DNA of 64,000 bases, taken from assembly GCA_963745035.1 (NCBI GenBank), contig CAVUVW010000014.1, forward strand, positions 288,001 to 352,000, given 5' to 3'. Numbering within the stretch: position 1 is the stretch's first letter; the number at the start of each line of letters is the position of its first letter. The notes beneath the pieces are model-generated. The model did not search any database and was not told the origin of the DNA. It saw only the letters and a list, made by a program, of their open reading frames with translations. Shown one piece after another: positions 48,521 through 63,992 of this stretch. Origin of the DNA: an uncultured delta proteobacterium (lineage in GTDB: Bacteria; Desulfobacterota; Binatia; UBA9968). Position numbers and translations under genes: made by a program.

Positions 48521-48584
48521 ACATCTGCGAGCGGCCGGAAGAGATGAAGAGAAAAGTTTTCTGGCGGAAAAAGGCGCGGTTAAA

Positions 48585-48762
48585 GATCTGATCGCGGATG
48601 CGGTGCGGTCGGACCCCTCGACAATCGCGTTCCGGCGCAAAACCGGACGCGAACCAGGCATGCCATCGTCGACGGCATGCCCACCGTCATGCTGGGAGTT
48701 TCCGTTATTGGCTGCCGCATTTTACGCGAACGGAAGAACAAAAAAATCCAACGGATCAGATC
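48585..48762 (-). ncRNA. ssrS: Candidate 6S RNA
   Basis: Canonical position between zapA and the cyclo-ligase gene; GATCTGATC/GATCAGATC closing stem spans 178 nt with a central hairpin at 48657-48681; primary consensus not recognised. Confidence 0.45.
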
Positions 48763-48850
48763 CATTGCTATCGTTTTTCCCCATTCCCTCATCTTCCCAC
48801 GCCGCCTCATTAAGGCATTCCCCGATTGGGGAATAATTACCTTAACAGTG

Positions 48851-49129
48851 TTAACCCTCCTCGCTTAACCTCGTCGAAAGTTTCTTCGATAGTTGATCTA
48901 GTCGAGTCAAAATGGCCTCGTGCGTATCCTTCAAGCGATAATACTCATCTGCAATGTTGAGCGCGGCCAGCATCGCGACATTGGACTTCGCCACCGCCTT
49001 GGGCGAACGCATGAGCTCCTGCATTTTTCCATCGACATAGCCGGCCACCTTCAGCATGTAAGCCTCTTCGGCGTCGCTGCTGATGGTGAACTTCTGGCCG
49101 AGAATCTCTACGTCTAACGCCTTTTTCAT
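48851..49129 (-). CDS. zapA: Cell division protein ZapA
   Basis: VEILGQKFTI..VAGYVDGKM..AMLAALNIADE. Confidence 0.93.
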   Translation of the reverse strand: MKKALDVEILGQKFTISSDAEEAYMLKVAGYVDGKMQELMRSPKAVAKSNVAMLAALNIADEYYRLKDTHEAILTRLDQLSKKLSTRLSEEG

Positions 49130-49147
49130 CGAGCCACCCGGCATCGT

Positions 49148-49381
49148 CTACTCCGCAAGCTGCAAATTGGCGAACTGACCGATAATCTTGTCGAGCTTCT
49201 CGCGCAATTCGAGTCGCTCGCGCTCGTATTGCCGGATCTGGCCTTTCAGGTGATGCCATTCGCTCTCTTTTTCCCGCAGCCTCTTTTCGATCGCTTCCTT
49301 TTCCGTCTTCATGCGCTCATGGTTTTCGAGCAATCGGTCGATGGTCGCTTCCAATTTTTCAATGTTGTTATGGGGAGCCAT
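49148..49381 (-). CDS. ZapB-like coiled-coil protein
   Basis: 77 aa coiled coil immediately upstream of zapA. Confidence 0.7.
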   Translation of the reverse strand: MAPHNNIEKLEATIDRLLENHERMKTEKEAIEKRLREKESEWHHLKGQIRQYERERLELREKLDKIIGQFANLQLAE

Positions 49382-49517: not shown

Positions 49518-49955
49518 TCACCGCCTTGTCGCGTCGGTTGCGGTTGGCTCATCGTAACCAAGAACGGTCTCCCACGGCACGCTGCAGTGCGCCACAACCA
49601 ATGTATCGAAGCGCTCCCACCACGCCAGATCTCTCCCTTCTCTACTCAGAAAGCGGACCATTTGCAGCATATCGTTGATCTCCGAGGGGCGGAGCGCCGG
49701 AGCGAAAGCGGGCATGACGCCCGCACCTTCGGCGATGATTTTGCGAATTTGACCATTGCTCTTTTTTTGAACCGTGTCGCGAAAATCGGGAGGCCGCACC
49801 GGCAGTGCCGCCGCCAGGGGACCATCGCCGACACCTCCCGGTCCATGACAATTAAAGCAGCGCTCGGCGTAGAGCGCGTCCATGCGCTCATTCCGCCCGC
49901 AGCCGACAGTCAAAGCGATCAATAGAAGTATCGGCAAAATAAATTTTCCCGGCAC
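49518..49955 (-). CDS. Monoheme cytochrome c lipoprotein
   Basis: LTVGC lipobox, CFNCHG..G.GDGP, MPAF distal Met; start GTG inferred. Confidence 0.85.
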   Translation of the reverse strand: MPGKFILPILLLIALTVGCGRNERMDALYAERCFNCHGPGGVGDGPLAAALPVRPPDFRDTVQKKSNGQIRKIIAEGAGVMPAFAPALRPSEINDMLQMVRFLSREGRDLAWWERFDTLVVAHCSVPWETVLGYDEPTATDATRR

Positions 49956-50009
49956 AACTAAACGCCTAGCACGACGACTCTGGTGATGCCAATCTCCGGT
50001 GCGCGGATT

Positions 50010-50034
50010 TGACACGAAGTGAAATTTCGTGTTA
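50010..50034. promoter_or_regulatory. Putative NikR operator 1 overlapping a TTGACA -35 box
   Basis: TGACACGAA-7-TTCGTGTTA palindrome = TGACA-N15-TGTTA. Confidence 0.65.
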
Positions 50035-50049
50035 CGCATTGGTACGATC

Positions 50050-50466
50050 ATGCATCACTTATCGCGCTTCGGCGTTTCGCTGGAAGAAGATCTGCTGGCG
50101 GCTTTTGATGTCAACATTGCCGGAGTCGGTTATCAAAACCGCTCCGAGGCCATCCGCGACCTGATTCGCGATTACTTGATCCAAAAGAAAATCGGGCAGG
50201 GCGACACGGAGGTAATCGGCGTAGTGACACTGGTCTACGATCATAGAGTCCATCGTTTGAGTGATGTTTTGGCGGACATGCAGCACAAGGCCGAGGTCGC
50301 CGTAAACGCCAGCCTGCATATTCATTTGGACGAACACAACTGCCTTGAAGTGATCGTCATCCGCGGGCGCGGCGACAAAGTTCACGAGATCGCGGGTAAG
50401 CTGATCGCCACGAAAGGCGTGCAGAACGGCAAGCTCGTAACCACCACCGCCGAAATGAAGCACTAA
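50050..50466 (+). CDS. nikR: Nickel-responsive transcriptional regulator NikR
   Basis: RFGVSL ribbon, NRSEAIRDLIR, Ni ligands MQH / HIH / NC(LEV). Confidence 0.95.
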   Translation: MHHLSRFGVSLEEDLLAAFDVNIAGVGYQNRSEAIRDLIRDYLIQKKIGQGDTEVIGVVTLVYDHRVHRLSDVLADMQHKAEVAVNASLHIHLDEHNCLEVIVIRGRGDKVHEIAGKLIATKGVQNGKLVTTTAEMKH

Positions 50467-50482
50467 AATTTTTTGCCGTGGA

Positions 50483-50509
50483 GTAACACGAAATTGCAAT
50501 ACTTGCTAT
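50483..50509. promoter_or_regulatory. Putative NikR operator 2 upstream of the MFS-TonB operon
   Basis: GTAACA-N15-TGCTAT; left half GTAACACGAA is the exact reverse complement of TTCGTGTTAC in operator 1. Confidence 0.6.
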
Positions 50510-50527
50510 TGGACGAGGCCGCTTGAA

Positions 50528-51793
50528 ATGAATCAGCACCAACACCATCACGACTCCGCCACCGGCGGGGGCCGCGACCACGGCGCCTCGGCGCTGACTC
50601 TGGTAAGCCTGGCGCACGGCGTTAACCATGCGCAGTCGGCGCTTAAGCCGCTGGTGTTTCCCCTCGTTCTTCGGGAACTGAATTTCGGCTACAGCGAGCT
50701 TGGCATCATGCTCGGCGTCGCCGCTGCGGTGGGCGGATCGCTGCAACTGGCCGCGGGAGCCCTTGGTCGTATTCTGCCGCGTCATCTCATATTGGGTTTG
50801 GGCAATGCCTCCGTCGGTGTTTGCTTCGTTCTCGTCGGGCTGGCGCAAAATTTTTTCCAATTTTCTCTCTGGACCGTGATGTCCCGGGTCGGTGGCGCCG
50901 CGCAGCACCCGGTGGGCAGCGCGCTCCTGTCACATCATTTTCAACGGAAGAAACTGGGCGTCGCTCTAGCGACGCACTTCACCGCCGGCAATATCGGAAC
51001 CGCGGTGATTCCTTTGGCCGCCGCGATCCTGATCGGCCTGTGGGGTTGGCGCGTCACGACAATTCTTTTTGCGGTGCCGGCGATCCTGGTTGGCGTGGCC
51101 ATGTGCATCTGGCTCAAGGATCCGGCCGCCAAAAGCCTCGGTGAATCCGAAAAACCCGCTTCGTTCTGGCAGGACAGCCGTCATGCCATCGGCAATCGGA
51201 ACCTGCGCTGGATCCTGGCTGCGGCGATCGTCGCCGCAGGCGGATCGGGCCACGGGATTATTTCAAGCTTTCTGCCGCTCTATCTCAATCACAATCTCGG
51301 CATGGATGCCCCGACGGTCGGAGTTATTTTCACGATTATGAGCGTGGGGAGCATCGTCGGCCCGATGCTTACCGGGAAGCTCAGCGATCGATACCACCCG
51401 CAGCGCGTGCTCCTGGTCTGTTACGCGCTCTCTGCCGCAACGGCGTTGATCTTGCCCTGGCTCGGCGCCAGTTTGATGGGCGTCTCGCTGGCGGTGTTCG
51501 CCTTGGGTGTCGTCGCGTTCGGCACGAATCCGATTTTGCAAACGCTCGTCGCGCAGTCGTCGTCCGATCGCCTTCGCGACACCGGTTTCGCATGGTTTTA
51601 TACCGCGACGTTTTTCGCCGGCGCGCTATGGTCTCCTGCCGTCGGCTACCTGAGCGAATGGCTGGGCTTGAAGGCCGCCTTCGGCGCCATGGCGGCGTCA
51701 TTCGTTTTGGCGAGCATGTGCGTCCTGCTCGGTCGTCTGCATGAAATCGCCGTCGATCACGAGCATGGAATCGCCGCACACACTCACCACTAG
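50528..51793 (+). CDS. MFS transporter with His-rich termini
   Basis: About 12 TM segments, GKLSDRY motif, N-term HQHHH, C-term HEHGIAAHTHH. Confidence 0.9.
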   Translation: MNQHQHHHDSATGGGRDHGASALTLVSLAHGVNHAQSALKPLVFPLVLRELNFGYSELGIMLGVAAAVGGSLQLAAGALGRILPRHLILGLGNASVGVCFVLVGLAQNFFQFSLWTVMSRVGGAAQHPVGSALLSHHFQRKKLGVALATHFTAGNIGTAVIPLAAAILIGLWGWRVTTILFAVPAILVGVAMCIWLKDPAAKSLGESEKPASFWQDSRHAIGNRNLRWILAAAIVAAGGSGHGIISSFLPLYLNHNLGMDAPTVGVIFTIMSVGSIVGPMLTGKLSDRYHPQRVLLVCYALSAATALILPWLGASLMGVSLAVFALGVVAFGTNPILQTLVAQSSSDRLRDTGFAWFYTATFFAGALWSPAVGYLSEWLGLKAAFGAMAASFVLASMCVLLGRLHEIAVDHEHGIAAHTHH

Positions 51794-51823
51794 GAAATTG
51801 CATGTACATTTGGAGAGTCGGTA

Positions 51824-53860
51824 ATGCGTTTTGCAGCTTTGATTATTGCGGGACTAATCTCTTACTTTACTCCACTTGACGCGAAAGGAGCCGATGCAGG
51901 TAGTCCGGTCGAAGTTTACGTATGGGAACAGCAGCCAATGTCGGCCGCAACCGAGCAAACAAGGTGGCAAAGAGACTTGGAACTCCGTCCATCGAACACG
52001 CCGAGCGATGTCATGCGGCTAACGCCCGGATTGATCATCGGCCAACATCACGGCGGCGGCAAAGCCGATCAGATTCTTTTTCGCGGTTTCGACTCGGATC
52101 ACGGCACTGATTTCGCGGTCTTCATCGACGGGATTCCGGTGAACATGGTGAGCCACGCCCACGGCCAGGGTTATGCAGACATGCACTGGTTGATTCCGGA
52201 GACGATTGAACGAGTGGAAATCTACAAGGGACCGTACTTCGCGCACCTGGGCGATTTTGCCACCTCCGGAGCGATGAACATCATCACTAAACGGCGCGAC
52301 AAGGACAGCACAATTACTTTGAGCGGCGGCAGCTACAACACTCAGCGTTACGTCGGCATTTTTGCGCCCCCGGAAACAATTCCTCTCCGTCCGTACATCG
52401 CCGGTGAGATCTACCATAACGACGGGCCGTTCAAGAACGAGAACAATTACATTCGCTACAACCTCCTTGCTAAGCTCGGCCTCTATTCCACCGCCAACTC
52501 GAATCTGAATTTCCTCGGCACTTTTTTCAAAACTGACTGGGACGCATCAGGTGAAATTCCGGCGCGCTCCGTGCGCAGCGGCGAAATCGGCCGCTTCGGC
52601 TCCTTCGATCCGAGCGAAGGCGGCAAGTCCGAGCGCCAGAACCTGAGTCTGATCTACAACTACACAGACGCCAATCAGTCGTTTAACGCGCAGACCTGGG
52701 CAGGCTGGTATAGGCTCCAGCTCTGGTCCAATTTCACTTTGTTTTTTAACGACCCGGTCAACGGTGACGGCATCGAACAAAAGGACAAGCGATTCCTCGC
52801 CGGCAACAACATCAATTATCGCCGCAACTACCGTCTCTGGAACCTGCCGATGGAGACGTTCGTCGGCTTTCAGAGCCGCTTCGATCACATCCGCGTCGGG
52901 CTGTTCAACCAGACCGACCGTCGGCGCCGCGAGACCGTGAAAAATAACAATATCGAGCAAACAAATCTTGGCTGGTTCGTGCAGCAGGAGATTCAACCGG
53001 CGTCCTGGCTGCGAACTCAGATCGGCGCGCGTATGGACAACTTCTGGTTCAACGTCGATCAGATCGGCAATGTTACCGAGCCCATCGCCGGCAACGGCTC
53101 CGATACAATCGTCAATCCCAAGCTCAATTTCATTTTCACTCCGTTCAAAGACGGCGAGGTCGCCAAAACCACGAATTTATTTCTCAATTTCGGCGGCGGC
53201 TTCCACAGCAACGACGCGCGCGTTTTCGTGCAAGATTCTAAAAAAGAGATACCGCGCTATTGGGGCGGCGAGATGGGCGCCAAGTCGCGTTTCTTCGATC
53301 GTTTGGACGTGACACTCGCCTACTGGCGGTCGTATCTGGAAAGCGAGCTAGTATTCGTCGGCGACGAAGGCGGATTTCGAGCCGAGCGGCGCGAGCAACC
53401 GCCACGGCGTAGAAAGCGAGTTCCGCTACGATATCCTTTCCTGGCTATCCTACGATCTCGATCTTTCGTACACCTGGGCGAAATTCACCAACGGCGATAA
53501 AGTGCCCTCTCGCGCCGCGTTTTCTCGCGCTCACCGGACTCACTGCGCGCCACGAATCCGGCCTCCAGGCGCGTCTTGCAGATGCGTCACGTCGGCCGGC
53601 GCTACGGCATCGAAGACGGCAGCATCAAGACTCCGTCGTCGACGGTCTTTGACCTCTTCTTGAAATACGTCTGGAAGCGCTATGAGTTTTTCGTCGAGTT
53701 CCAGAACCTGGCCAACACGAAATATCGCGCCGCCGAGCACGTTTTCGAGTCGCGCACTCCGGGCGAAGTGTCCGGCGGGCTGCCGGGAAGGCTCGATTCT
53801 CACTTTACGCCCGGCGACCCGTTTACCGTGAAGGCTGGAATCACGGTTCATATGTGGTAG
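51824..53860 (+). CDS. TonB-dependent outer membrane receptor (candidate Ni/Co), frameshifts at about 53375-53575
   Basis: Plug QHHGGGKADQ..RGF..DHGTD, HAHGQGY, IERVEIYKGP; C-terminal aromatic residue (ITVHMW). Confidence 0.9.
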
Positions 53861-53926
53861 AAAAATGTATTTTTAAACCGCGTCGATCGAGCTTTGCAGG
53901 GATGCGCGTGATTTACGGAAAGCGCA

Positions 53927-54745
53927 GTGAGAGCCGAGAGTTTCAGCATACCGCTCCTTTCATCCATCTCGATTCACGGCTGCGCGATCTTGGTCGCTTC
54001 TTTCCTGCTTCAAGGGAAGGTGCCGCGTCAGCAAAATTATTTTCCGGTACGCTTAATCGAAGCGCCAGAGTTGCAGAATCGGAACCATCTCAAACCTGCG
54101 ACGCGCCAGAAACAAGACCACCGCCGCAGCACAAAGTCAAAGAACGAACCGACAAAGATCACAAAGCCGACCGCGAAGTCCCCAACGGTTACACCGACCC
54201 CGACGCTTCCCGCGACCAAGCCGCAAGAACCGGTAAAGAACGCAGAAACTAAAACAGCCGCGCCGGCAGCGAGCGAGACTCCGGCGAGTGCCATCGTTAA
54301 CAAAGATGGAGAGGACGGCGGTAGCCCTGCCGGCGCAATAGCTTCATCCGGTTCCGGTAATGTGGGAGTCGTTCCCGGCACTGCTACCGGTATAGGCGGC
54401 GGAGGCACAGCGCCTTTAGGTTTAGGCCGCGGTGCCGGCGCGCCAGGATCGCCCGTCCAATCCGTGTTCCGCGCCAATCGCGAAGCCAAGCCGATTCAAA
54501 CCGCGCGGGCGAATTATCCGCCCATGGCGCTGCGGAGCGGCCTGGAAAGCGACGTAACCTTGAAAATCGAAGTCGATCCTCAAGGCAACGTGACCAAAGC
54601 AGAGATTACAAAGAGCGGCGGCGGGGGATTCGACGAAGAAGCCCTCAAGGCGGTAAAGCAGTCGCGCTTCGAGCCGGCGCACCGCGACGGCGAGAATATC
54701 GCGGCCGAATTCACCTATGTCTACCGGTTCCGGATCAGACGATGA
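53927..54745 (+). CDS. tonB: Energy transducer TonB
   Basis: SISIH TM anchor, Pro/Lys-rich linker, YPPMA..G.E..V, FDEEALKAVKQSRFEPA. Confidence 0.9.
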   Translation: MRAESFSIPLLSSISIHGCAILVASFLLQGKVPRQQNYFPVRLIEAPELQNRNHLKPATRQKQDHRRSTKSKNEPTKITKPTAKSPTVTPTPTLPATKPQEPVKNAETKTAAPAASETPASAIVNKDGEDGGSPAGAIASSGSGNVGVVPGTATGIGGGGTAPLGLGRGAGAPGSPVQSVFRANREAKPIQTARANYPPMALRSGLESDVTLKIEVDPQGNVTKAEITKSGGGGFDEEALKAVKQSRFEPAHRDGENIAAEFTYVYRFRIRR

Positions 54746-54774
54746 GACACTGCGTTTCCTGAAAGGAGATCGAC

Positions 54775-55383
54775 ATGGCAAGCTTCTCGCACTCGCATCA
54801 CCACCACCACGATCCGCACGATTGGGCATCAGCCGAGTATGTCGCCAAGTGGGCTAAGGGCCAGGATCCGAAAGAGGCCGGTCGCCGGCAGGCGTTTAGT
54901 TTGCTAGCGGATACAATCCCGTACGAAAAGCAGCAGCCGATCACGATTCTGGACCTCGGCGCCGGTTACGGCGCGCTGACGAAATTTCTTCTCGAACGAT
55001 TTCCACAAGCGACGGCGATCTGTCAGGACGGGTCGGAGGAAATGGCCAAGCTCGGCCGTGAGCGCATGAAAGAATTCGCAGGACGTTTTGAGTACGTCGT
55101 GGCCGATTTCAGCCGTCACGGTTGGAGTAAGCTGGTGCCGGGGCCGTTTGCCGCCGTCGTTTCCTCGATCGCCATTCACAACGTGAATAGTCCAAAGATC
55201 ATCCGCGGAATCTACGATGATGCCTACACGCTGGTTCAATCCGGCGGTTGCTTTTTGAATTTCGATCGGCACGAGCCGCCTATTGACGACCAGATGAAGT
55301 GGCTTCGCGGCGCCGGATTCAAAGACGTGCAGTGTTTCTGGCAGGATGACCATCGCGCTCTGTTCGGCGGCTTTAAAAAGTAG
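54775..55383 (+). CDS. Class I SAM-dependent methyltransferase with His-rich N-terminus
   Basis: AGGAG RBS, HSHHHHHDPHD, ILDLGAGYG, VSSIAIH. Confidence 0.88.
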   Translation: MASFSHSHHHHHDPHDWASAEYVAKWAKGQDPKEAGRRQAFSLLADTIPYEKQQPITILDLGAGYGALTKFLLERFPQATAICQDGSEEMAKLGRERMKEFAGRFEYVVADFSRHGWSKLVPGPFAAVVSSIAIHNVNSPKIIRGIYDDAYTLVQSGGCFLNFDRHEPPIDDQMKWLRGAGFKDVQCFWQDDHRALFGGFKK

Positions 55384-55480
55384 GAATGGAAGCATGGGCG
55401 CTCGGTCTTCACAATCTTCATAACACCGGTCGCTTTCGCTCGTCCAACAATGATGCTTAATACGTCAAGAGGAGAGCAAG

Positions 55481-55903
55481 ATGGCAGGACGCAAATGGAC
55501 TGTTGCGGCTACGTTGATCCTGGTGCTGTCGCTGCCACCTTTCGTCCAGGCGCAGCACGACCATTCAAAAGGCCACCAGCCGCCGACGCAGACTAAGCCG
55601 ACCAAACCGGCAAAACCGGCGCTCAAACCGGCCGAGGGCGCAAGCATCAAGATCGTTGCGCCGAGCAAAGGCCAGGTCCTCAAAGGCGACAAGATCCCTA
55701 TCGAATACAAACTCACCAAGGGCAAGCGCGGACATCACGCTCATGCTTATGTCGATGGTGAATTGATGGGAATGTTCGAAAGCGAAAAAGGCACGCTCAA
55801 CGGCATCAAGCCCGGCAAACATATCCTCGAGCTGCGCGTCGTAGCGGCCGATCACGTAACCGAACTGGACGCCAGCGACAGGGTCGAATTTACGGTCAAG
55901 TAG
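55481..55903 (+). CDS. Secreted His-containing Ig-like candidate metal-binding protein
   Basis: Signal peptide then QHDHSKGH; GHHAHAYVDG and PGKH..ADH motifs. Confidence 0.7.
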   Translation: MAGRKWTVAATLILVLSLPPFVQAQHDHSKGHQPPTQTKPTKPAKPALKPAEGASIKIVAPSKGQVLKGDKIPIEYKLTKGKRGHHAHAYVDGELMGMFESEKGTLNGIKPGKHILELRVVAADHVTELDASDRVEFTVK

Positions 55904-55976
55904 AGCTGCATTTCAAAATCGATCGACCGCTTGCGAACTGCCGGCCGTTCCGCCTAGGATAGTGCTCAGAAACGCG

Positions 55977-56390
55977 ATGAAAGCACGAAGACCAGTTTCG
56001 AAGCTTCAGCGCGGCCTCTACCTGAGCGCCGCTGCCGCGTTTTGTTTCTTCCTGATCGCGTCCGCTCCCCATCGAGTGCATCATTTTTTCGAGCAACTGG
56101 CCGAATCTTCCGAGCATCACGCCGTTCACGCCGAAACACACGAGCACACCGGAATCGCCCATGATCATCACGACCATGATCATCACGGCCGCGATCACGG
56201 TCAACGGCGGCAGCAAGAAACCGACTGTGTGGTCTTGTCCGTCGCGCAGAACGCGCATGCATCTCTCGTGCAACCGTTTAGTTTTGCCATCTTCGAATCC
56301 GAGGTTACGCGCCGGCACGAACCGCGCGTCGTAGACGCGTCATCGTTCAATCCCGCACCTCGCTCTCAGCGCGCGCCACCGCTGGCCTAA
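55977..56390 (+). CDS. His-rich DUF2946/CruR-like leader protein ending in RAPP
   Basis: N-terminal TM, His tract, DCVVL, C-terminal PRSQRAPPLA-stop. Confidence 0.7.
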   Translation: MKARRPVSKLQRGLYLSAAAAFCFFLIASAPHRVHHFFEQLAESSEHHAVHAETHEHTGIAHDHHDHDHHGRDHGQRRQQETDCVVLSVAQNAHASLVQPFSFAIFESEVTRRHEPRVVDASSFNPAPRSQRAPPLA

Positions 56391-56430
56391 GTTTTTCCGA
56401 GCTACTTTCAGTGTCAAGTTAAGTTGTCTG

Positions 56431-56456
56431 CTTTCGACAATATCCTTTGTCGAAAG
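56431..56456. promoter_or_regulatory. Perfect 10-bp hairpin downstream of the RAPP ORF
   Basis: CTTTCGACAA-TATCCT-TTGTCGAAAG. Confidence 0.55.
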
Positions 56457-56608
56457 AGAGCTTACGTATTGGCGCCTTACCACTTAGGGACCGTGTCTGC
56501 TGCTTTCGGGTCATTTGGACCGTCAATCGAGCGAGGTTCGCGTAGTGGTAGGCGCAAAAGCGATTCGCCTGATGATCCATTCATCGGTGATCAGGTAGGT
56601 AATTTTCT

Positions 56609-57922
56609 ATGAGAACGCTAACAATTGTAAGTTGCTTCCTTTTTCTCGGCTGCGGTTCGGAACTGGCCGCGCCGCCGGCGGCCAATCGGGCAGTTCCTCT
56701 CGCCTTCGGACCGGAGATCGCTATCGGCGAACCCGAGGCGAATCCTTCGACACCGTTTCTGCGCCACTCGCCGGACGGACGACTGTTTGCCGTCTGGACC
56801 GAAGACCACGAGACACCTTGGCCACAAGGAAAGCACTCCGCAGGTGGCCACGCGCACATGAAGGGCGACCGAGCGCCATCGCCGATGCGCAACGCTTTTA
56901 TCGCTTCATCGAGCGACAACGGAAAGAGCTGGGCGCCACGGCGGCGGGTGAATAGCGAAGTCGAGGCAGTTCAAGGCGAGGAAAACGGACCTAAGGTCGC
57001 CTTTGACTCCAATAACCGCGCCTACGTCGTCTGGTCCATTCCCGGTGGCAAAGGCGACAAGACGCGCGCAAATATTCGCTTCGCCATGGAAGACAGTAAC
57101 GGCAACTTCACACCGGCCCGAACCTTGAACGAGGTCAAAGACGCCGGCCGCTTTCCGATCATTGAAGCCATGCCCGACGGCAACTTCTTGATCGCCTGGA
57201 TCGACCGCCGGATAGACAACCCAAAGCCACGCCAGCTCTATCTGATGAAGATGGGCGCCACCGGAGAATCGTTGACGAAGAACTACCAAGCCGGCGAAGG
57301 CCTGTGCGAATGCTGTAAACTGGGCTTTGCCTTCGCCGCCGGCGGTAAGACGGTTTACATGGTCGATCGCGAGGTGGATGAAAGTAAAATTCGCAATCAC
57401 GTGCTGCGCAAGTCCACCGACGGTGCCGCCACCTTCGGCGCGCCTGTGGAAATCAGCAACGACGGCTGGCAGGTGCCCTCGTGCCCGCACTCCGGGCCGA
57501 GCATCGGCCGCGACAGCCGTGGCTGGCTCCACGTCGTGTGGTTCACTCTGGGCCGCACCGAAAAGGAAGCGGGAATTTACTACAGCGTGTCGAGAGACGA
57601 CGGCAAAAGCTTCGCGCCGCGCCGGTTAGTCCATGCCAATGCGGCGCCGGAAATTCTCTATGCCAATCTCACCGTCGGTCTCGACGATACGGTCTATCTG
57701 GCCTGGAGTAATTTGGACAAGACCAGCAGAGCACAAATTTTTATGCGCACGATATCGGCCGACGGCCGGACATGGAGCGCCATCCAGCAAGTGAGTAACG
57801 CGAAAGGCAACGCCAGCCGGCCGGTTTTAGCGCTCCGAAACGATCAGTTGCACGTCGCCTGGACCGAAACCGACAGCGAGGACTCGCGAGTTGTCATGAG
57901 AAACGCGGCGGTAAGCCGATGA
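56609..57922 (+). CDS. BNR/Asp-box (sialidase-like) beta-propeller lipoprotein
   Basis: FLGC lipobox, Asp boxes SSDNGKSW, STDGAATF, SRDDGKSF; CECC and CPHSGP. Confidence 0.85.
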   Translation: MRTLTIVSCFLFLGCGSELAAPPAANRAVPLAFGPEIAIGEPEANPSTPFLRHSPDGRLFAVWTEDHETPWPQGKHSAGGHAHMKGDRAPSPMRNAFIASSSDNGKSWAPRRRVNSEVEAVQGEENGPKVAFDSNNRAYVVWSIPGGKGDKTRANIRFAMEDSNGNFTPARTLNEVKDAGRFPIIEAMPDGNFLIAWIDRRIDNPKPRQLYLMKMGATGESLTKNYQAGEGLCECCKLGFAFAAGGKTVYMVDREVDESKIRNHVLRKSTDGAATFGAPVEISNDGWQVPSCPHSGPSIGRDSRGWLHVVWFTLGRTEKEAGIYYSVSRDDGKSFAPRRLVHANAAPEILYANLTVGLDDTVYLAWSNLDKTSRAQIFMRTISADGRTWSAIQQVSNAKGNASRPVLALRNDQLHVAWTETDSEDSRVVMRNAAVSR

Positions 57923-58504
57923 ACACACGAATGACTCAGCGAAACCAGCCGCCTGGCGTGCGATATCGCGCCACTGGCAACATTGTGCTGCGCCGTCCTG
58001 TTGATATCGGCAGCGTCGACCGCGTGGTCGCAACACAATCATCACACCGGCCAGTCCGCCGCGCCGGTAGTCGGCGGCCCAGCGGTACCGTTCGAGCTCA
58101 AGTCACTCGATGGCAAACCGGTCGGCCTTTCAACCTTCCGCGGCAAACCGCTGGTCGTAAATTTCTTCGCCAGTTGGTGCGACCCCTGCCGCGAAGAAAT
58201 GCCATTGATCAACGATCTGGCGTCCAAAGGCGCCAAAGACGGTTACAGCGTGCTCGGCATCGCGGTCGAGGACAGCCGCGCGGCCGTAACAGAATTCGCT
58301 AAAGAGTCCAAGCTCGTTTTCCCCGTCGCCCTCGATTTGAACAGCACCGTCAAGCGCGCCTACCGCATCTTCGGTCCACCGGCGACTTTCTTTATCGACG
58401 GGCAGGGCATCATCCGCGATGTGGTTCTCGGCCCAATCACGCCCGACCGTGCTCGCGCGGCGATGAAGAAAATCAGTGATGAACGATGGATGGAAAAAAG
58501 GTAG
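57919..58504 (+). CDS. TlpA/ResA-family thiol-disulfide oxidoreductase (5' frameshift likely)
   Basis: VNFFASWCDPCREEMP, PATFFID; ATG 57919 overlaps the upstream stop; mature N-term QHNHH. Confidence 0.88.
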
Positions 58505-58638
58505 AATCCGCGGGCCATCGCGACCTGGATAGCGCCGCCGCTGAGGCGGTCAAAAAGTGGCTATTCGAGCCTGCCCGGGCGGGAAAAACACCGGTTGCCG
58601 TCTGGGTCTTACTCCCAGTTAAATTTGAGCTAGAATAG
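58486..58638 (+). pseudogene. Isolated TonB C-terminal fragment (50 aa)
   Basis: MDGKKVESAGHRDLDSAAAEAVKKWLFEPARAGKTPVAVWVLLPVKFELE. Confidence 0.7.
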
Positions 58639-58655
58639 CACACGCCCGGTCTTTC

Positions 58656-59606
58656 ATGAGAAAAACATTTTTCAGATACTTGCTGGTCACTACTTCGGTG
58701 GGGATCGTGCTGGTGGCATTGAATGTGCCAGCCGGTGCACAGTCCGTGGACTTTAATGGAAGGTCTCCAGTAGACGTCGTCAAGGCCTATCTCCGGGCGA
58801 TGCATGCCCGCGACTTTGATACTGCTTATGGCTACGTCTCCGCCAGCGATCGCAGGGTGCGCGGAAAGGGCACCTATCTTCGCTCTCATGAAAATTTCAT
58901 TGGCTTTGCCCTGGATCTCGCCAGGCGGCTCGCCACAGGCATGGAAGTATGGGCAATCAAACAGCAACTCGGGTCGTCGAAGACTCATCTTGAAATCGGG
59001 TATCGCGCGCCAACAGCCGATGAGCTGGCCTTGCAGCTTCTCGATTGGGATCCCGCCAAGCTCAACGCGCTTTCACCCGCTCAGCAATCCGCGCTGTTCG
59101 GAGCTCTCTCCAAGCTCCAAAGCAGCGGGAAGATGATCACCATCGAAGGTCGTGAAAACTTCGACTTGGTGCGAGAACGGGAGGGTTGGAGAATCTTCTT
59201 CGATTGGCAGGCGCACCACCGAATTGTTTTCAAGAGCACCCAGGCCGATCGTCAGGATTTGACGGTACGGTTTTTGCGCAACGATCTTTTCGTTAAACGC
59301 GAAGAGCCCTTTCAAGTAGACCTCGCCGTCACCAACCGTACGGACCGTGCGATTGTCGTAAAACTCAATCATCTTTTCGCACCACGCCAAATAGAGAAAA
59401 ATATCGATATGATCGCCTGCGGCTCCCTTGGGCCCTTGCACCTTCAGCCGCACGAGATTCGGAAGATCTCCAGCGTCTATCTCTTGCGCGGCGCTTTATC
59501 CGACGAAGCGCCGATTGGAATCATTTATGACTTCAATGTCACGCATCCACCGGACAAGAGATTTGCACGCCTGAAAGATCAAACAATGAGGCAACAGTGG
59601 CGCTGA
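58656..59606 (+). CDS. Exported protein: NTF2-like N-domain plus Cox11/CtaG-like C-domain (paralog 1)
   Basis: AYLRAMHARDFDTAYGYVSASDR; WRIFFDW; LNHLFAP..NIDMIACG..LQPHE. Confidence 0.65.
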   Translation: MRKTFFRYLLVTTSVGIVLVALNVPAGAQSVDFNGRSPVDVVKAYLRAMHARDFDTAYGYVSASDRRVRGKGTYLRSHENFIGFALDLARRLATGMEVWAIKQQLGSSKTHLEIGYRAPTADELALQLLDWDPAKLNALSPAQQSALFGALSKLQSSGKMITIEGRENFDLVREREGWRIFFDWQAHHRIVFKSTQADRQDLTVRFLRNDLFVKREEPFQVDLAVTNRTDRAIVVKLNHLFAPRQIEKNIDMIACGSLGPLHLQPHEIRKISSVYLLRGALSDEAPIGIIYDFNVTHPPDKRFARLKDQTMRQQWR

Positions 59607-60502
59607 GGCAGCATCATCACAAGCCAGTCCTCATTAGGCTCGGGATTTTCTCGCAACTGCTGCTGGCTCTGGCGCTCGGGGCTATGAGTAACCGGCCCGC
59701 TTGCGCGTCCGAGGAACCCGCAAAGGTTGTCGAAGCCTATGTGCGCGCGACCTATGCGCGTGACTTTGTCGAAGCGTATCGCTTTATTTCCGCCGATGAC
59801 CGCAAGGCGATGAACGTCAATCGTTATGTTCAGCAGCGCGGCGCCTTCAGCGGCTTCATTCTCGAGGCGGCGAAAAAGCTCAGCGAAGCGGTTGAGATTC
59901 ATCCCTTGAAGCAGCAAGCTCGGGGTAACCGCATGGATCTCTTGGTCAAGTACCGGGTTCCTGATACCAAGAAGATCGCGCCTGTTCTTTTGAATTGGGA
60001 TACGTACCAGTTGAATTCATTGAATCCCGTCGATCGAAAACAACTCCTTGCCACCTTGGAAAAGAAACGACGTGATCGCTCTCTGGAGATGATAGAGGGC
60101 GAAGTCAATTTCGAGCTGGTCAAAGAAGGCAGCGACTGGAGAGTGTTTTTGAACTGGGCTTCCGGCGTTAAGATACCCCTGCGACTTGATCTATCCCAGG
60201 CCGCCGATCTGGACGTGTCTATTTCGCAGCCGGAGGTCATGGTTCAGCCCGGTGAAATCTTTGACATAGTTCTTAAGGTCAAAAACAAAACCAAGGAGCC
60301 CATCACGGCGCGCATCGGCCATTTGGTCGAGCCGCAAGCTCATGCCGACTATTTGGACTTCGTTCAGTGCGGTTTTCTCTTGCCGGTGACGATTCCGCCA
60401 GAAAAAGAAGAACAGTACTTCGGCACTTACATGGTCCGTGGCAGCCTTCCCGAAGGCGTGCGGCAACTAAGTTTGACGTATGATTTTCGCATTCTTCAGT
60501 AA
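59597..60502 (+). CDS. Exported protein: NTF2-like plus Cox11/CtaG-like (paralog 2)
   Basis: AYVRATYARDFVEAYRFISADDR; VQPGE..KNKT..IGHLVEP..YLDFVQCG. Confidence 0.7.
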   Translation: MALRQHHHKPVLIRLGIFSQLLLALALGAMSNRPACASEEPAKVVEAYVRATYARDFVEAYRFISADDRKAMNVNRYVQQRGAFSGFILEAAKKLSEAVEIHPLKQQARGNRMDLLVKYRVPDTKKIAPVLLNWDTYQLNSLNPVDRKQLLATLEKKRRDRSLEMIEGEVNFELVKEGSDWRVFLNWASGVKIPLRLDLSQAADLDVSISQPEVMVQPGEIFDIVLKVKNKTKEPITARIGHLVEPQAHADYLDFVQCGFLLPVTIPPEKEEQYFGTYMVRGSLPEGVRQLSLTYDFRILQ

Positions 60503-61100
60503 GGTTATCGCCGTCGGCGGCCTGTCGCTCGGGCTCCTCTTGCCAGCTTTTCTCTTCGCGCATGTTCCCGACACGCCAAAAAGTTCAAGCAAAAATACCA
60601 CCGCTGTTGGTGTTAGAGTGCTCGATTTTGTTCTGGTGAATCAAGACACTCAACGTCTCGATTCGACGCAGCTCCGCGGCAAGGTGCTGGTGCTGAATTT
60701 TATCTTCACGACCTGCACAGATGTTTGCCCGCTATTCACGATGAATCTCGCCGCGCTTCAGCGCAACCTCAACGGTCGCTTCGGCGGTGATATTTTCTTC
60801 CTGAGCATAACCACCGACCCCGAAGTGGATTCGGCAAAGCATCTGAAAGCTTACGGCCAACGGCACGGCACCGATTTCAAGAATTGGGCATTCTTAACGG
60901 GCTCCGAAGCGCAATTGAAAGCGGTCTGGGACAGCTTCGGTATCACGGTCATCAAGAAGGGCCGCGGGTTGGTGCAGCACACGAGCCTCACCACCGTCAT
61001 CGACCGCCAGGGGGTTCGACGATTCAATTATCTCGGCGAGAAGTGGCGGATCCAAGATCTCGAAAGAGATCTCTTGACCTTGCTCGACAAGAAAGCTTGA
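60480..61100 (+). CDS. SCO1/SenC family protein
   Basis: FIFTTCTDVCP (CxxxC), SITTDPEVD, W.FLTG, VQHTS. Confidence 0.92.
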   Translation: MIFAFFSKVIAVGGLSLGLLLPAFLFAHVPDTPKSSSKNTTAVGVRVLDFVLVNQDTQRLDSTQLRGKVLVLNFIFTTCTDVCPLFTMNLAALQRNLNGRFGGDIFFLSITTDPEVDSAKHLKAYGQRHGTDFKNWAFLTGSEAQLKAVWDSFGITVIKKGRGLVQHTSLTTVIDRQGVRRFNYLGEKWRIQDLERDLLTLLDKKA

Positions 61101-61200
61101 TTTCTCCCAACGCAAATCTAGCGGCGACCCCGGTTTTATGGTTAATTGCTTTTGCCATGAGTTCGAGATTCCGATCGTCTAATCTGCGTCGAGGGGAAAA

Positions 61201-61776
61201 ATGAAGAATATCAGCCGCTGGATGCTCGCAGGACTTTTCGTCGCGCTCACGCTGGCTCCAAGTCGCGTAAGCCTGGAAATATCCGCCCACGCGCAGGATG
61301 CCCCTTTCGATAACAAGAAGATCGTCCCCTTTGTTCCCTCGCCGCAGGAAGTCGTCGATAAGATGATCGAGTTGGCGGGCGTAAAAAAGGGCGATGTCGT
61401 CTACGATATGGGCTCGGGTGACGGCCGCATCGTCATCGCCGCGGCCAAAAAAGGCGCTCGCGCCGTCGGCTTCGAGATCGACGGCGATCTCGTGAAAGAG
61501 TCGCGCGAAAATATTCGCAAGGCCGGCGTGGAGAACCTGGCGGAGATCCGCCAGCAGGACATTCTCACCGTCGATTTTGCTCCCGCGTCGGTGGTGACCA
61601 TGTATCTTTTGCCCGACGTCAATTTGAAGCTCAAACCAAATCTGTTGAAGCAGCTCAAACCGGGCTCCCGCTTGGTCTCGCATTCCTTCGACATGGGCGA
61701 TTGGAAGCCCGACAAGGTCGAGCGCGTGGACGGCCGCACGATCAATTTTTGGACTATTCCCGCCAAGAAAAAGTAG
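61201..61776 (+). CDS. Class I SAM-dependent methyltransferase with signal peptide
   Basis: SAHA-QD cleavage site, VPFVPSP, YDMGSGDGRIV, VTMYLL, RLVSHSF. Confidence 0.88.
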   Translation: MKNISRWMLAGLFVALTLAPSRVSLEISAHAQDAPFDNKKIVPFVPSPQEVVDKMIELAGVKKGDVVYDMGSGDGRIVIAAAKKGARAVGFEIDGDLVKESRENIRKAGVENLAEIRQQDILTVDFAPASVVTMYLLPDVNLKLKPNLLKQLKPGSRLVSHSFDMGDWKPDKVERVDGRTINFWTIPAKKK

Positions 61777-61818
61777 CGCGTTGGGTATTCGCGGAGATTT
61801 TTTAACTTAACTGAGCGA

Positions 61819-62706
61819 ATGCCCGCCGCCATTAAAAGGTCGCTGCTTTTCCTGATCAGCGTCGCGCTCCTGGCCGCGCCGCTGTTCTTTTGGTTCGGCG
61901 TTGAGAGCCGCCAAGAGGAGCCGCTCGACACGCTGGCGAAGTATTTGAAAGTCCTTTACGCCCGGGATTTCCGCCAGGCGTATCGTTTCATCTCCGCCGC
62001 GGACCGCGAGCTGAAAAGCCGCAGCGACTACGTGCGCGAGCGCGGCGCGTTTCACGGGCTTGCACTCGACGCCGCGCGCAAGCTTTCGGATCTCATCGAA
62101 GTTTATCCCGTAAAGCAGGATGTTGATGGAGCGCGCAATCGAGTGACAGTCGCTTTGAAGCTTCCCGACGCCAATGCCGTCGGCGATTTACTTCTCGACT
62201 GGGACGAGCGGCGGCTCGCTGACTTGCCGGTGTCCGAGCAGAAAAAGCTGCTCGCGCGCATCGAACAGCTCGTGCGCGACGATCAGGTGCCGATGATCGA
62301 AGGTGAGGAAGAATTCGTGCTGGTTCAGGAAGGGTCCCAATGGAAAATTTTTCTCGATTGGGCCGCCGGCGTTCAGGTCAAGTTCGCCACCACACTGCCG
62401 TCGAATGGCGCGCTGGCGGCGGAACCGGTGAGCAAAGAAACCGTCGTTCGCTCGGGCGATCTCTTCACGGTGGGCTTCAAAGTAAAGAATCCAGGGAAGA
62501 ATGAAATTCTGACCCGCATCGTTCACCGGGTGGAGCCTAAAGAAATGACCGAATACTTGGATCTTGTGGAGTGCGCGTTGCTGCTGCCGGTGCGCCTGCG
62601 CCCTGGCGAAGAGCAGATTTTCAACAGTACCTACATCGTGCGCGGCGATCTCCCTGACGGCGCCAAATCCATCGCTGTGAATTATGAATTCCAAATCGAA
62701 AATTAA
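61819..62706 (+). CDS. Exported protein: NTF2-like plus Cox11/CtaG-like (paralog 3)
   Basis: YLKVLYARDFRQAYRFISAADR; IVHRVEP..YLDLVECA..LRPGEE. Confidence 0.7.
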   Translation: MPAAIKRSLLFLISVALLAAPLFFWFGVESRQEEPLDTLAKYLKVLYARDFRQAYRFISAADRELKSRSDYVRERGAFHGLALDAARKLSDLIEVYPVKQDVDGARNRVTVALKLPDANAVGDLLLDWDERRLADLPVSEQKKLLARIEQLVRDDQVPMIEGEEEFVLVQEGSQWKIFLDWAAGVQVKFATTLPSNGALAAEPVSKETVVRSGDLFTVGFKVKNPGKNEILTRIVHRVEPKEMTEYLDLVECALLLPVRLRPGEEQIFNSTYIVRGDLPDGAKSIAVNYEFQIEN

Positions 62707-63307
62707 CGGGTGGATTGCGGCTTTTGTGCTTGGCGCAGCATCCCTGTCCGCGACGAGCTCAGCGCATGTTCCGCTACCGCCCAGAGAACCGAGCGACATC
62801 GGCCGGCGTGTGGTCAACAAGCCTGTGCCGGACTTCAAGCTCACCGATCAAGACGACAGGCCGTTTCAATTCGCCGGCGCGCGCGGCAAGGTTGTTCTCG
62901 TAACTTTTGTCTTCACCACCTGCCCGGACGTCTGCCCGCTTTTCACGGCCAACTTCGCCGGCATCCAGCAGCGGCTCAACGAGAAGAAGATAACCGACTA
63001 CCTGCTGCTCACGATCACCACCGACCCCGAGCGCGACAGCGCCGCGGTCCTAAAAGAATACGCCGGCCGCTTCAAAGCCGACTTGAAGCGCTGGTCATTC
63101 CTCACCGGCGCACGCGCCGAATTGAGCAAAGTGTGGAAGATTTTCGGCGTCAACGTGGTCAAAACCGACTCCGGACAAGTGCAGCACACATCGTTCACGA
63201 CCCTCGTCGATCGCCAAGGCAGACGCCGCGTCGATTATTACGGCGACAAGTGGCGGGAGAAGGAGGTTCTCAAGGATATCGAATGGCTGCGCGCGGAGAA
63301 GCCGTAA
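62684..63307 (+). CDS. SCO1/SenC family protein
   Basis: FVFTTCPDVCP, TITTDPERD, WSFLTG, VQHTS. Confidence 0.92.
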   Translation: MNSKSKINGWIAAFVLGAASLSATSSAHVPLPPREPSDIGRRVVNKPVPDFKLTDQDDRPFQFAGARGKVVLVTFVFTTCPDVCPLFTANFAGIQQRLNEKKITDYLLLTITTDPERDSAAVLKEYAGRFKADLKRWSFLTGARAELSKVWKIFGVNVVKTDSGQVQHTSFTTLVDRQGRRRVDYYGDKWREKEVLKDIEWLRAEKP

Positions 63308-63413
63308 GAACTGAAGTGATGGAGTGTCGGAGTAATGCTCAACCCGGCACTTTATTATCAGCCACGCCTAGGTTGTCTAACGAAGCACATACACGCATGA
63401 AAGAATTTCGTTC

Positions 63414-63992
63414 ATGCTGAGCCCGTCGAAGCATTCCTCGGCCCTTTTCGGTGCTTTGCTTTTTTTTGCCTCCTACCTCGTCGCCGATGTGGCAAACACC
63501 GCTGAGCGCGCTCAAGGCGTCTTGGAAATCCGGATCAAAGACCACCGCGACGCCATCGGCGACTTCGCCAAGCTTAATATCAATATCGATAAGATCCTGA
63601 TCAGCCCGAACGTTGGGCTGAAGGTCTGGCAAACCGGTTGGCAAGAACTCACCGCTTCACCCGACACGGTCGATCTGACGAAGTACATTGGCAAGACCAC
63701 AGCCAAAGTATTTCGCTCGAACATCGATGCAGGACCGTTCGATGCCTTTCATTTGAAGCTCAAGAGCATCGACGCCGTGCTCAAAAAAAACCAGAAAAGC
63801 GCACCGGTTAAAAATACGCTCGGGCCGGTGAAGCTCACCTTCGATGTTCCTCCAAAAGGCGAAACAATCCTGGTGATCGACCTGACCGTGGTGGATTTAT
63901 CCGACCACCCGCCGCGCGGCTATGAGCTGGGAATCCGCGGCTACGAGCTCTACACCAACGGCAAGCTCATCGGTAGAATCCCGCCGAATTAA
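63414..63992 (+). CDS. Exported DUF4382-like beta-sandwich protein
   Basis: Signal-like N-term, G.LEIRIKDH, TVDLT, IDLTVVD; SDHPP. Confidence 0.6.
   Translation: MLSPSKHSSALFGALLFFASYLVADVANTAERAQGVLEIRIKDHRDAIGDFAKLNINIDKILISPNVGLKVWQTGWQELTASPDTVDLTKYIGKTTAKVFRSNIDAGPFDAFHLKLKSIDAVLKKNQKSAPVKNTLGPVKLTFDVPPKGETILVIDLTVVDLSDHPPRGYELGIRGYELYTNGKLIGRIPPN

Follow-up and report, generated by a model that had tools for sequence, protein, structure and literature searches.

A NikR-headed gene island of Candidatus Binatia combining predicted nickel-repressed uptake genes with leader-preceded envelope proteins of copper-chaperone folds

The gene cluster described here occupies positions 49518-63992 of a 64,000-nt stretch of DNA (the window) on contig C14 of an uncultured member of Candidatus Binatia (G000:C14:288001-352000), the genome of which amounts to 7.43 Mb in 28 contigs and is 92.6% complete. 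It brings together a gene for the repressor NikR, a set of uptake-type genes and, behind a leader gene of the DUF2946 family, a series of genes for envelope proteins with the folds of copper chaperones. Scoring of the gene calls with Pfam and NCBIfam profiles against their curated cut-offs confirmed NikR, a major facilitator superfamily (MFS) transporter, a TonB-dependent receptor, TonB, two methyltransferases, DUF2946, a BNR propeller, a TlpA/ResA-like protein, three Cox11-like proteins, two Sco proteins and DUF4382, all of them present and co-oriented in the order given in a preliminary description made from the sequence alone. Every gene from 50029 to 63992 lies on the plus strand, with intergenic gaps of -23 to 218 nt. 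That description had let the NikR-headed cluster begin at 49518; positions 49518..50051 are in fact taken up by a minus-strand gene for a cytochrome c lipoprotein (Pfam Cytochrome_CBB3, 41 bits; CFNCH haem motif; LTVGC lipobox), which is divergent from nikR. This gene probably starts near 49955, which would leave a promoter region of about 95 nt common to it and nikR, and a divergent cytochrome c gene, together with one for Sco, is also kept in the loci of relatives.

The regulator gene, nikR (50050..50466, plus strand, with an alternative start at 50029), encodes a protein that combines an RHH_1 domain (PF01402, 34.3 bits) with a NikR_C domain (PF08753, 96.8 bits) and scores 177.1 bits against the NF003381 model, the cut-off of which is 105. 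Its best match in the PDB is 2bj1, the NikR of Pyrococcus horikoshii (E 1.6e-36). Alignment to the P. horikoshii and Helicobacter pylori structures bears out the earlier observation of intact nickel ligands: all four residues of the high-affinity site (the His of YDH and those of H-x-H-x5-C) are kept, and they are likewise retained in 19 of 19 distinct NikR homologs of relatives. The NikR_C match is the only one in the genome, and nikR is thus present as one copy, at this locus only.

Two predicted NikR operators flank the gene. Operator 1 (50009..50035; TTGACAC-N13-GTGTTAC) lies in the divergent region between the cytochrome c gene and nikR; it is a good inverted repeat with two mismatches to GTAACAC-N13-GTGTTAC and is kept 5' of nikR in four loci of relatives (L033, L034, L039 and L042). 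Operator 2 (50483..50509; GTAACAC-N13-TTGCTAT) is placed 19 nt before the MFS start codon and has one perfect half-site only, so that of the two palindromes claimed previously just the first stands as such. At the position of operator 2, a (G/A)CACGAA(T/A)T core is found in 10 of the 10 loci of relatives shown, ahead of the receptor gene or, in the family f2, ahead of ZnuA. According to Rodionov et al. 2004 (PMC545781), the NikR box of delta-proteobacteria is GTGTTAC-N13/14-GTAACAC, and the reversed box, GTAACAC-N13-GTGTTAC, precedes a nickel transporter operon of Desulfotalea psychrophila (Table 4 of that paper); the sites in the window are of this reversed kind and agree with the published box in half-sites and in the 13-nt spacing. 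Composition alone would predict 21 copies of the 10-mer GTARCACGAA in the 7.43 Mb; eight are present. Two of these are the sites on either side of nikR, and the other six, none of which has a second half-site, are found in 23S rRNA, within open reading frames (ORFs), or before an alpha/beta hydrolase gene or near a HerA-like gene. The full box, allowing up to two mismatches, yielded four sites genome-wide in the reversed and six in the forward orientation; mononucleotide shuffles of 1 Mb gave a higher density, of about 2.7 hits per Mb, and these genome-wide searches brought up no further convincing NikR site besides the two flanking nikR. Within the downstream set of genes for chaperone-fold proteins (56609-63992) we found no NikR box. 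Box-like matches with three mismatches within the cluster, such as that at 58585-58612, were taken as chance. We infer that nickel-bound NikR represses the divergent cytochrome c gene, nikR itself and the uptake genes.

The sensing of nickel by this regulator may be questioned, given that copper precedents exist for all components of the island other than nikR (DUF2946 leaders, Sco, TlpA, the Cox11 fold and the CopC/CopD pair of relatives), that MFS-type copper importers such as CcoA exist, and that nikR-bearing genomes are mostly without classical nickel enzymes. A re-purposed NikR homolog might then report copper, or a copper-dependent signal, and repress copper uptake, with all genes of the island supplying cuproenzymes. 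We know of no copper-sensing NikR. Moreover, the protein scores as an equivalog of the nickel-responsive NikR, its square-planar His3Cys site is kept in 19 of 19 relatives, and its half-sites are the same as those predicted before nikMNQO nickel transporters (PMC545781). We regard an island devoted wholly to copper as quite improbable.

Behind operator 2 lies the gene for the MFS transporter, which has His-rich N- and C-termini (50528..51793, plus strand; Pfam MFS_1, 209.8 bits); its orthologs with 74-80% identity also come after nikR in the genomes G013 and G008. It is followed on the same strand by the TonB-dependent receptor (51824..53860; plug 61.3 bits, barrel 30.7 bits) and TonB (53927..54745; TonB_C, 66.4 bits). 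The receptor ORF can be read only through three +1 frame changes (frames 0>1>2>0). These are likely to be assembly errors rather than the marks of a pseudogene, because a short-read contig from a near-identical strain (run X5) is one base shorter at 53378, 53504 and 53574, an ortholog in relatives is intact with 703 aa (L034:1311-3422), and several genes downstream look frameshifted as well. Among the latter (L001; G000:C14:351001-371000) are ahcY, metK, rapZ and kdsD, and the assembly seems indel-prone. Next comes a class I S-adenosylmethionine-dependent methyltransferase (54775..55383, plus strand; Methyltransf_25, 45.4 bits) with the N-terminus SHSHHHHH (MASFSHSHHHHHDPHDW), the sequence of which begins MASFSHSHHHHH and which is kept 3' of TonB in relatives. 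The exported His-rich Ig-like protein HisP (55481..55903, plus strand) has a signal peptide, the motifs QHDHSKGH and GHHAHAY and a weak Pfam match to BiPBP_C (E 0.008); its atlas neighbours are Binatota clusters. The receptor and TonB thus stand directly behind a predicted NikR operator, with the receptor intact in relatives and in the short-read contig. We inspected 20 nikR loci in 19 genomes, one of which has a contig that ends straight after nikR; in the 19 loci where it could be determined, what follows nikR on the same strand is without exception a gene for a receptor, an MFS transporter or a ZnuA-like protein.

In most relatives a cluster A-I ABC importer is encoded between the methyltransferase and the His-rich protein. 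Its components are nearest to AztC, AztA and AztB but stay under the NCBIfam cut-offs, at 175, 170 and 177 bits. Alignment with PsaA assigns three His ligands (His-His-His) to the binding protein of the importer, the ATPase of which has a His-rich N-terminus. AztD is a propeller chaperone of AztC, and a propeller protein is present in the island as well. These features raise the prospect that the island scavenges another divalent metal, either zinc or a broad range of zinc, nickel, cobalt and manganese, around the AztABC-like importer, with the periplasmic proteins chaperoning its binding protein and with a repressor that differs by lineage (NikR, a DtxR-type regulator or none); a DtxR-family regulator indeed heads the version of the module in Methylomirabilales. 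However, the importer was not found in the genome of the window, 92.6% complete, where a search brought up only a generic ZnuA with 26% identity on contig C15. Furthermore, the thiol-reductant partners TlpA and VKOR, as well as Sco, are not known in zinc uptake, and the regulator here is NikR and not Zur. Such divalent-metal scavenging appears rather improbable to us.

Between the uptake genes and the genes for chaperone-fold proteins lies a gene for a leader peptide of the DUF2946 (CruR/CutF) type (55962..56390, plus strand; Pfam DUF2946, 25.8 bits against a cut-off of 23.7). Its product has an N-terminal hydrophobic transmembrane or export segment at residues 18-35, 14 His within residues 52-79, and a sole Cys, C89, in an ExxC context; the CXXC of the family is absent. 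It ends in ...RAPPLA, the RAPP being residues 137-140 of 142 (codons 56370-56381), two residues from the stop and separated by 47 residues (between C89 and R137) from the Cys. The same C-terminal RAPP is present in seven of the seven correctly framed leader homologs of relatives. A spacer of 218 nt (56391..56608) separates the leader gene from the next gene, which encodes the BNR propeller. A putative hairpin followed by a T-tract at 56366-56385 overlaps the RAPP codons (RNA fold z-score -2.3), and a contig from an RNA library, itself weak evidence, spans 56297-56479. In Bordetella, CruR is a DUF2946 upstream ORF in which arrest at RAPP controls Rho-dependent termination ahead of a TonB-dependent receptor gene in response to copper, the arrest being modulated via a CXXC located 45 residues N-terminal to RAPP, and the leader spacer of B. 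pertussis measures 162 nt (Roy et al. 2022, PMC9426467). Similarly, the Rhodobacter CutF senses periplasmic copper during secretion (10.1101/2025.02.05.636593). Partners in operons with DUF2946 leaders that are named in these two sources include TonB-dependent transporters, Sco, PCuAC, CopC and AhpC_TSA. A second DUF2946/RAPP leader, of a C-x8-C type and followed by DUF4198, CopC and CopD genes, is found in relatives (L038:6895-9791 and L033:9149-11867); this block is absent from the window.

The nine genes that follow the spacer are all on the plus strand. The first (56609..57922) encodes a BNR/sialidase-fold propeller lipoprotein (BNR_2, 31.4 bits, which equals the cut-off) that contains a CECC cluster and an HSAGGHAHM stretch and could itself bind metal. 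The second (57983..58504) encodes a TlpA/ResA-type thiol:disulfide oxidoreductase with the WCDPC motif (AhpC-TSA, 98.7 bits), which scores below both specific models (ResA NF002854, 116 bits against a cut-off of 170; TlpA, 66 against 230). Three Cox11-like paralogs are located at 58656..59606 (paralog 1, motif ACGSLGP; CtaG_Cox11, 16.6 bits, below the cut-off of 25; transmembrane anchor, alpha/beta domain and Cox11-fold domain), 59597..60502 (paralog 2, QCGFLLP; 30.2 bits) and 61819..62706 (paralog 3, ECALLLP; 41.9 bits), paralogs 1 and 3 being 31% identical. Paralogs 2 and 3 are each overlapped by 23 nt by the start of a Sco1/SenC gene, namely 60480..61100 (CTDVC...H; SCO1-SenC, 89.4 bits) and 62684..63307 (CPDVC...H; 100.3 bits). 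Both Sco proteins retain the CxxxC and the distal His (CTDVC or CPDVC, with QHTS), just as TlpA retains its WCDPC. A second class I methyltransferase (61201..61776; Methyltransf_31, 43.4 bits) was named as exported in the preliminary description; the gene is there, and the putative export is read from its hydrophobic N-terminus. It has at least 13 paralogs in the genome, 41-61% identical and often in tandem, on contigs C2, C5, C8, C9, C13, C15, C24 and C27. The last gene (63414..63992) encodes a DUF4382 beta-sandwich protein (41.7 bits) with invariant DHR and SDHP..YE motifs.

An AlphaFold2 model of Cox11-like paralog 3, built from a 67-row alignment (predicted local distance difference test, pLDDT, 89.5), places an alpha/beta domain (about residues 35-177) between a transmembrane helix and a beta domain; for the latter, the best match among PDB structures is apoCox11 (1SO9; E 1.2e-5, TM-score 0.70 over 117 columns). 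Features given for Cox11 in PMC9172173 are a CFCF copper motif, a Lys at position -3 and a conserved Cys after the transmembrane helix. CFCF is present in 24 of the 67 rows of the Cox11-like family (f2, f3, g7 and Methylomirabilales), and the Lys at -3 and the post-helix Cys are missing in the three paralogs of the window. Across the 67 rows H236 and C252 never vary, and no other Cys is invariant. The DUF4382 protein is modelled as a beta sandwich (pLDDT 84.6) for which no PDB entry reached E<=1e-3 in the fold search; its invariant columns are D43-H44-R45, D50, D156, D161, S163, H165 and E171. A complex prediction for paralog 3 with DUF4382 scored 0.04, which counts neither way, and our literature search on DUF4382 found only an unrelated paper.

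As the preliminary description had proposed, synteny was surveyed among relatives, and the layout proved to be conserved in Candidatus Binatia while splitting into two control units. Presence and absence were profiled in 61 related genomes (the Cox11-like tally includes the unpublished G005), and related loci were gathered with a DUF4382 alignment, giving 77 public DUF4382 loci with flanks of up to 10 kb, many of which are cut by contig ends. A Cox11-like gene is present in 45 of the 61 relatives; by group, 26 of the 30 genomes of the genus have one, as do 3 of the 5 in f2 and 11 of the 19 in f3. On the same strand as DUF4382, the 77 loci have a Cox11-like gene in 71 cases, Sco in 73, ZnuA/ZnuB in 40, VKOR-thioredoxin in 44 and a DUF2946 leader in 15. 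The Sco-VKOR pair, which is 3' of DUF4382 in most relatives, sits at G000:C15:303877-305292 in the present genome, where two cytochrome c homologs lie close by. A nikR gene and a Cox11-like gene are found on one contig, within 22 kb of each other, in 17 genomes, which belong to two families and at least four genera (G000, G003, G004, G006, G007, G012, G014, G018, G019, G020, G025, G027, G029, G033, G037, G039 and G041), and in seven further genomes, including the unpublished G005, they are on different, mostly short contigs. This shared contig in two families means that the neighbourhood of nikR and the chaperone genes is not chance adjacency.

The two units can nevertheless be separated. nikR was not found in any of the 19 f3 genomes, 11 of which retain the chaperone module, nor in G015 (98% complete) or G021 (95% complete), where the chaperone unit adjoins a divergent cytochrome c-Sco pair; conversely, G008 has two nikR uptake loci, neither with chaperone genes behind. 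Separability in these three genomes might suggest that an ordinary nickel uptake operon merely happens to lie beside an unrelated copper-chaperone operon. However, the order is kept on one contig across the 17 genomes listed above, and the link between importer and chaperone genes reaches f3 and Methylomirabilales, so that we consider chance neighbourhood highly improbable. In f3, a Cox11-like domain is fused to DUF4382 in one 512-aa ORF (L049:9657-11195, G058), which comes after ZnuC, ZnuB and MFS genes. The genes 5' of the fusion encode a 1213-aa fused CydDC-like ABC exporter, ZnuA, an amidohydrolase, ZnuC, ZnuB and the MFS protein. Our literature searches (NikR with Sco1 and periplasmic nickel; Binatota or Binatia with copper and nickel) returned nothing on this arrangement.

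Taken together, the explanation we favour, tentatively and a little short of an even chance, is a two-layer island, in which a nickel-repressed uptake unit is joined to a leader-gated and probably copper-type envelope relay. In the first layer, nickel-bound NikR on the two operators flanking its gene would shut off the cytochrome c gene and nikR on one side and, on the other, the genes for the MFS transporter, the TonB-dependent receptor, TonB and the His-tagged methyltransferase, as well as the AztABC-like importer in relatives. Uptake across both the outer and the inner membrane would be repressed by nickel, as with FrpB4 in Helicobacter. In the second layer, the exported DUF2946 leader, with its His-rich segment as a putative sensor, its predicted RAPP arrest and the 218-nt spacer, would gate the nine downstream genes. 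Their products (the BNR propeller, the TlpA-type protein, the three Cox11-fold proteins, the two Sco proteins, the methyltransferase and DUF4382) would be fixed to the periplasmic side of the inner membrane. There TlpA may keep the CxxxC thiols of Sco reduced, and Sco, the Cox11-like proteins and DUF4382 may pass a metal ion along the membrane surface, with the importer as its source or destination, or with enzymes whose genes lie elsewhere as recipients. The two units might stay together because one uptake route serves both. The loss of the copper-type Cys motifs in the genus would leave the specificity of the relay open. In this account the sequence itself shows the gene content, the motifs, the operators, the RAPP leader, the synteny and the fusion; nickel repression, ribosome arrest, the relay and its metal are our interpretation.

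Several observations weigh against this two-layer interpretation. The ExxC and the 14 His of the leader replace the hallmark CXXC of its family, and of the two Cys of CFCF only the first is left in the three Cox11-like paralogs of the window; those of the rest of the genus likewise have just one. The His-rich cytoplasmic tails of the MFS protein, the methyltransferase and the ABC ATPase of relatives fit nickel or zinc better than Cu(I). The 106 loci searched, which add up to 1.67 Mb, are all without a COX1 gene, and COX1 is present in seven of eight f3 genomes that have no Cox11-like gene. In the family f2, the order is nikR, box, ZnuABC, Cox11-like (CFCF), DUF4382, Sco and VKOR, with short gaps, and in these loci we found no leader and no clear terminator between the NikR box, the importer and the chaperone genes, an uninterrupted arrangement that suggests one NikR-controlled operon. 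In Methylomirabilales, contig L127 (1353-14931) has a DtxR-family regulator with a FeoA domain heading a similar module, which consists of Cox11-like (CFCF), an OmpL-like porin, Sco, cytochrome c, a Cox11/DUF4382 gene and ZnuA/ZnuB.

Some of the same features can be read as signs of a single nickel pathway, in which copper-chaperone folds are re-tooled for periplasmic capture of Ni(II) and pass it to the importer or to an extracytoplasmic nickel client. The linkage of nikR to Cox11-like genes in 17 genomes of two families, the f2 NikR box running unbroken into the importer, Cox11-like, DUF4382, Sco and VKOR genes, and nikR being single-copy and confined to this locus would all be in keeping with it, as would the reduction of CFCF to one Cys with H236 and C252 invariant in 67 of 67 rows, the replacement of the leader CXXC by ExxC and the 14-His stretch, the His-rich tails of several proteins, and the invariant His, Asp and Glu motifs of DUF4382. 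On the other side, no periplasmic nickel metallation is known to us, the module persists where nikR was not found (19 of 19 f3 genomes without nikR, G015 and G021), f2 and f3 homologs retain the copper-type CFCF, and Sco retains CxxxC with its His. In relatives, CopC and CopD belong to the same island. Among the 61 relatives few classical nickel enzymes occur and no client is in sight, and the leader family is copper-responsive where tested (PMC9426467). We judge a single nickel pathway to be unlikely, though still the foremost alternative, ahead of divalent-metal scavenging and of an island devoted wholly to copper. Its more specific form, a nickel relay or nickel/copper switch built from Sco, the domain-extended Cox11, DUF4382, the His-rich Ig protein and the propeller, fed by the NikR-controlled receptor, gated by the His-sensor leader and serving nickel import or an extracytoplasmic client, we also hold to be unlikely. 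The preliminary description had inferred an undescribed pathway of periplasmic trafficking and metallation for nickel, or for nickel with copper cross-talk, and it is supported in part. What speaks for it is the linkage to a single-copy nikR, a box matching that of PMC545781 and the degraded Cys motifs; what does not is that the boxes are confined to nikR and the first uptake gene, and that the chaperone genes stand behind a DUF2946/RAPP leader of their own, persist without nikR, keep CFCF in distant homologs and have CopC/CopD beside them in relatives. It had also reckoned that such a pathway would be contradicted by these genes occurring without nikR and beside coxAB or nosZ; they do occur without nikR, and never beside cox genes (0 of 106 loci).

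By family precedent, copper is most likely the relayed metal, a view favoured by the leader family, Sco, TlpA, the Cox11 fold, the CFCF of distant homologs and the CopC/CopD genes nearby in relatives; the case for nickel draws on NikR and its box, on the uninterrupted gene order in f2, on the shifts from Cys to His in the genus and on the His-rich cytoplasmic tails. As to the client, the window contains no COX1, NiFe-hydrogenase or urease gene, in agreement with the preliminary description, which had proposed to look for a client enzyme beyond the end of the window. The island ends at 63992, and convergent housekeeping genes (ahcY, metK, rapZ, rpoN and lptB) lie beyond. The four COX1 genes of the genome are elsewhere, on contigs C13, C2 and C27, and its only Cox11-family matches are the three atypical paralogs of the window. 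Along with the lack of COX1 at the 106 loci and its presence in f3 genomes that have no Cox11-like gene, this speaks against a simple role in oxidase assembly. COX1 is nearly universal, occurring in 58 of 61 relatives, and its presence profile was uninformative. In the genome (92.6% complete), NiFe hydrogenase, HypA and CbiM/NikM were not found, nor was urease above the cut-off; in a search for nickel superoxide dismutase, the control was silent. Two NicO-family genes lie elsewhere on contig C14. Among the 61 relatives, NiFe hydrogenase is present in 2, LarA in none and urease in 11 (6 with and 5 without nikR), and none of these tracks nikR, which is found in 30 of the 61, where classical nickel enzymes are rare. 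Nickel transporters have been noted previously in organisms without known nickel enzymes, and facultative users such as GlxI have been suggested (Zhang et al. 2009, PMC2667541).

Scans of the cluster for promoters and terminators gave no excess over shuffles, and in each unit only some stretches are matched by contigs from two RNA libraries, which could stem from DNA carry-over; the uncovered stretches carry no meaning. An Rfam search over 36000-64000 found only an rRNA operon and two tRNAs, with no riboswitch in the cluster. That operon is complete (16S, two tRNAs, 23S, 5S) and lies at 38682-44102 on the minus strand; the 12-mer GTAACACGAAAT also occurs at 41060 inside its 23S gene, as a chance match. 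Between it and the cytochrome c gene, the minus strand at 47906-49381 carries genes that we take, from their sequence, to be zapB-like, zapA-like and 5-formyl-THF cyclo-ligase-like, with a 190-nt gap at 48662-48850. In E. coli, the 6S RNA sits between zapA and the 5-formyl-THF cyclo-ligase gene; in this gap, the Rfam search gave no 6S RNA at the gathering score.

What is known of how metals are supplied in the envelope concerns mostly copper (Sco, Cox11, PCuAC), next to the uptake of nickel into the cytoplasm, and this locus joins both in a conserved arrangement in uncultured soil bacteria that are abundant. If NikR controls MFS and cluster A-I ABC transporters, as predicted here, its regulon would extend to transporter types that are not tied to it in the literature cited here. 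A DUF2946 leader with its sensor motif shifted from Cys to His offers a test of how such leaders read different metals, and the Cox11-fold family with its added domain and DUF4382 partner provides a first functional context for DUF4382. The retention of nikR in about half of the related genomes, among which classical nickel enzymes are rare, is a puzzle in its own right. A relay that carried nickel would be the first chaperone pathway for this metal in the periplasm.

In H. pylori, NikR represses FrpB4 and FecA3, which work with TonB-ExbB-ExbD (PMC3856676), and the two systems are alike in placing a TonB-dependent receptor and TonB under the direct control of NikR and its operator, a control that is predicted for the window. 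They differ in that the present cluster has no exbBD, that an MFS transporter (in relatives also an AztABC-like importer) is added, that nine genes for chaperone folds follow, and that neither urease nor hydrogenase was found in the genome of the window. The delta-proteobacterial NikR regulon (PMC545781) shares with it the half-sites, the 13-nt spacing, the reversed orientation seen in Desulfotalea psychrophila and the placement of the site before uptake genes, whereas its targets are nikMNQO-type energy-coupling factor transporters; here they would be a TonB-dependent receptor, an MFS protein and the cluster A-I ABC importer of relatives, and CbiM/NikM was not found. Zinc importers of cluster A-I (AztABCD and ZnuABC) resemble the AztC/A/B-like genes in the island of relatives, with their His-His-His site and a propeller encoded nearby; unlike them, these genes score under the equivalog cut-offs, have a NikR box rather than a Zur box in front and were not found in the genome of the window. 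A CopC/CopD pair occurs in the same island in relatives behind the second DUF2946 leader, but it is not in the window, and in relatives a DUF4198 protein precedes it.

In the delivery of copper to heme-copper oxidases by Cox11/CtaG, Sco and TlpA, we find the same single transmembrane anchor, the Ig-like Cox11 fold, the CxxxC plus His of Sco and a TlpA-type reductant, whereas the family in the window has an extra domain of about 145 aa between anchor and Cox11 fold, is partnered with or fused to DUF4382, and is encoded away from cox genes at every one of the 106 loci. Lastly, the leader unit is like those of CruR (bp2923-bfrG-bp2921) and CutF (cutFOG) in having an exported small protein with RAPP by the stop, a similar distance from the sensor Cys, a long spacer, and Sco and AhpC/TSA-type partners. 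It differs from them in that its ExxC is preceded by 14 His where the known leaders have CXXC, in that it is not the first gene of its co-directional block, and in what lies downstream, which is a receptor or a multicopper oxidase in those systems and a propeller, TlpA, Cox11-like, Sco and DUF4382 proteins in the island described here.

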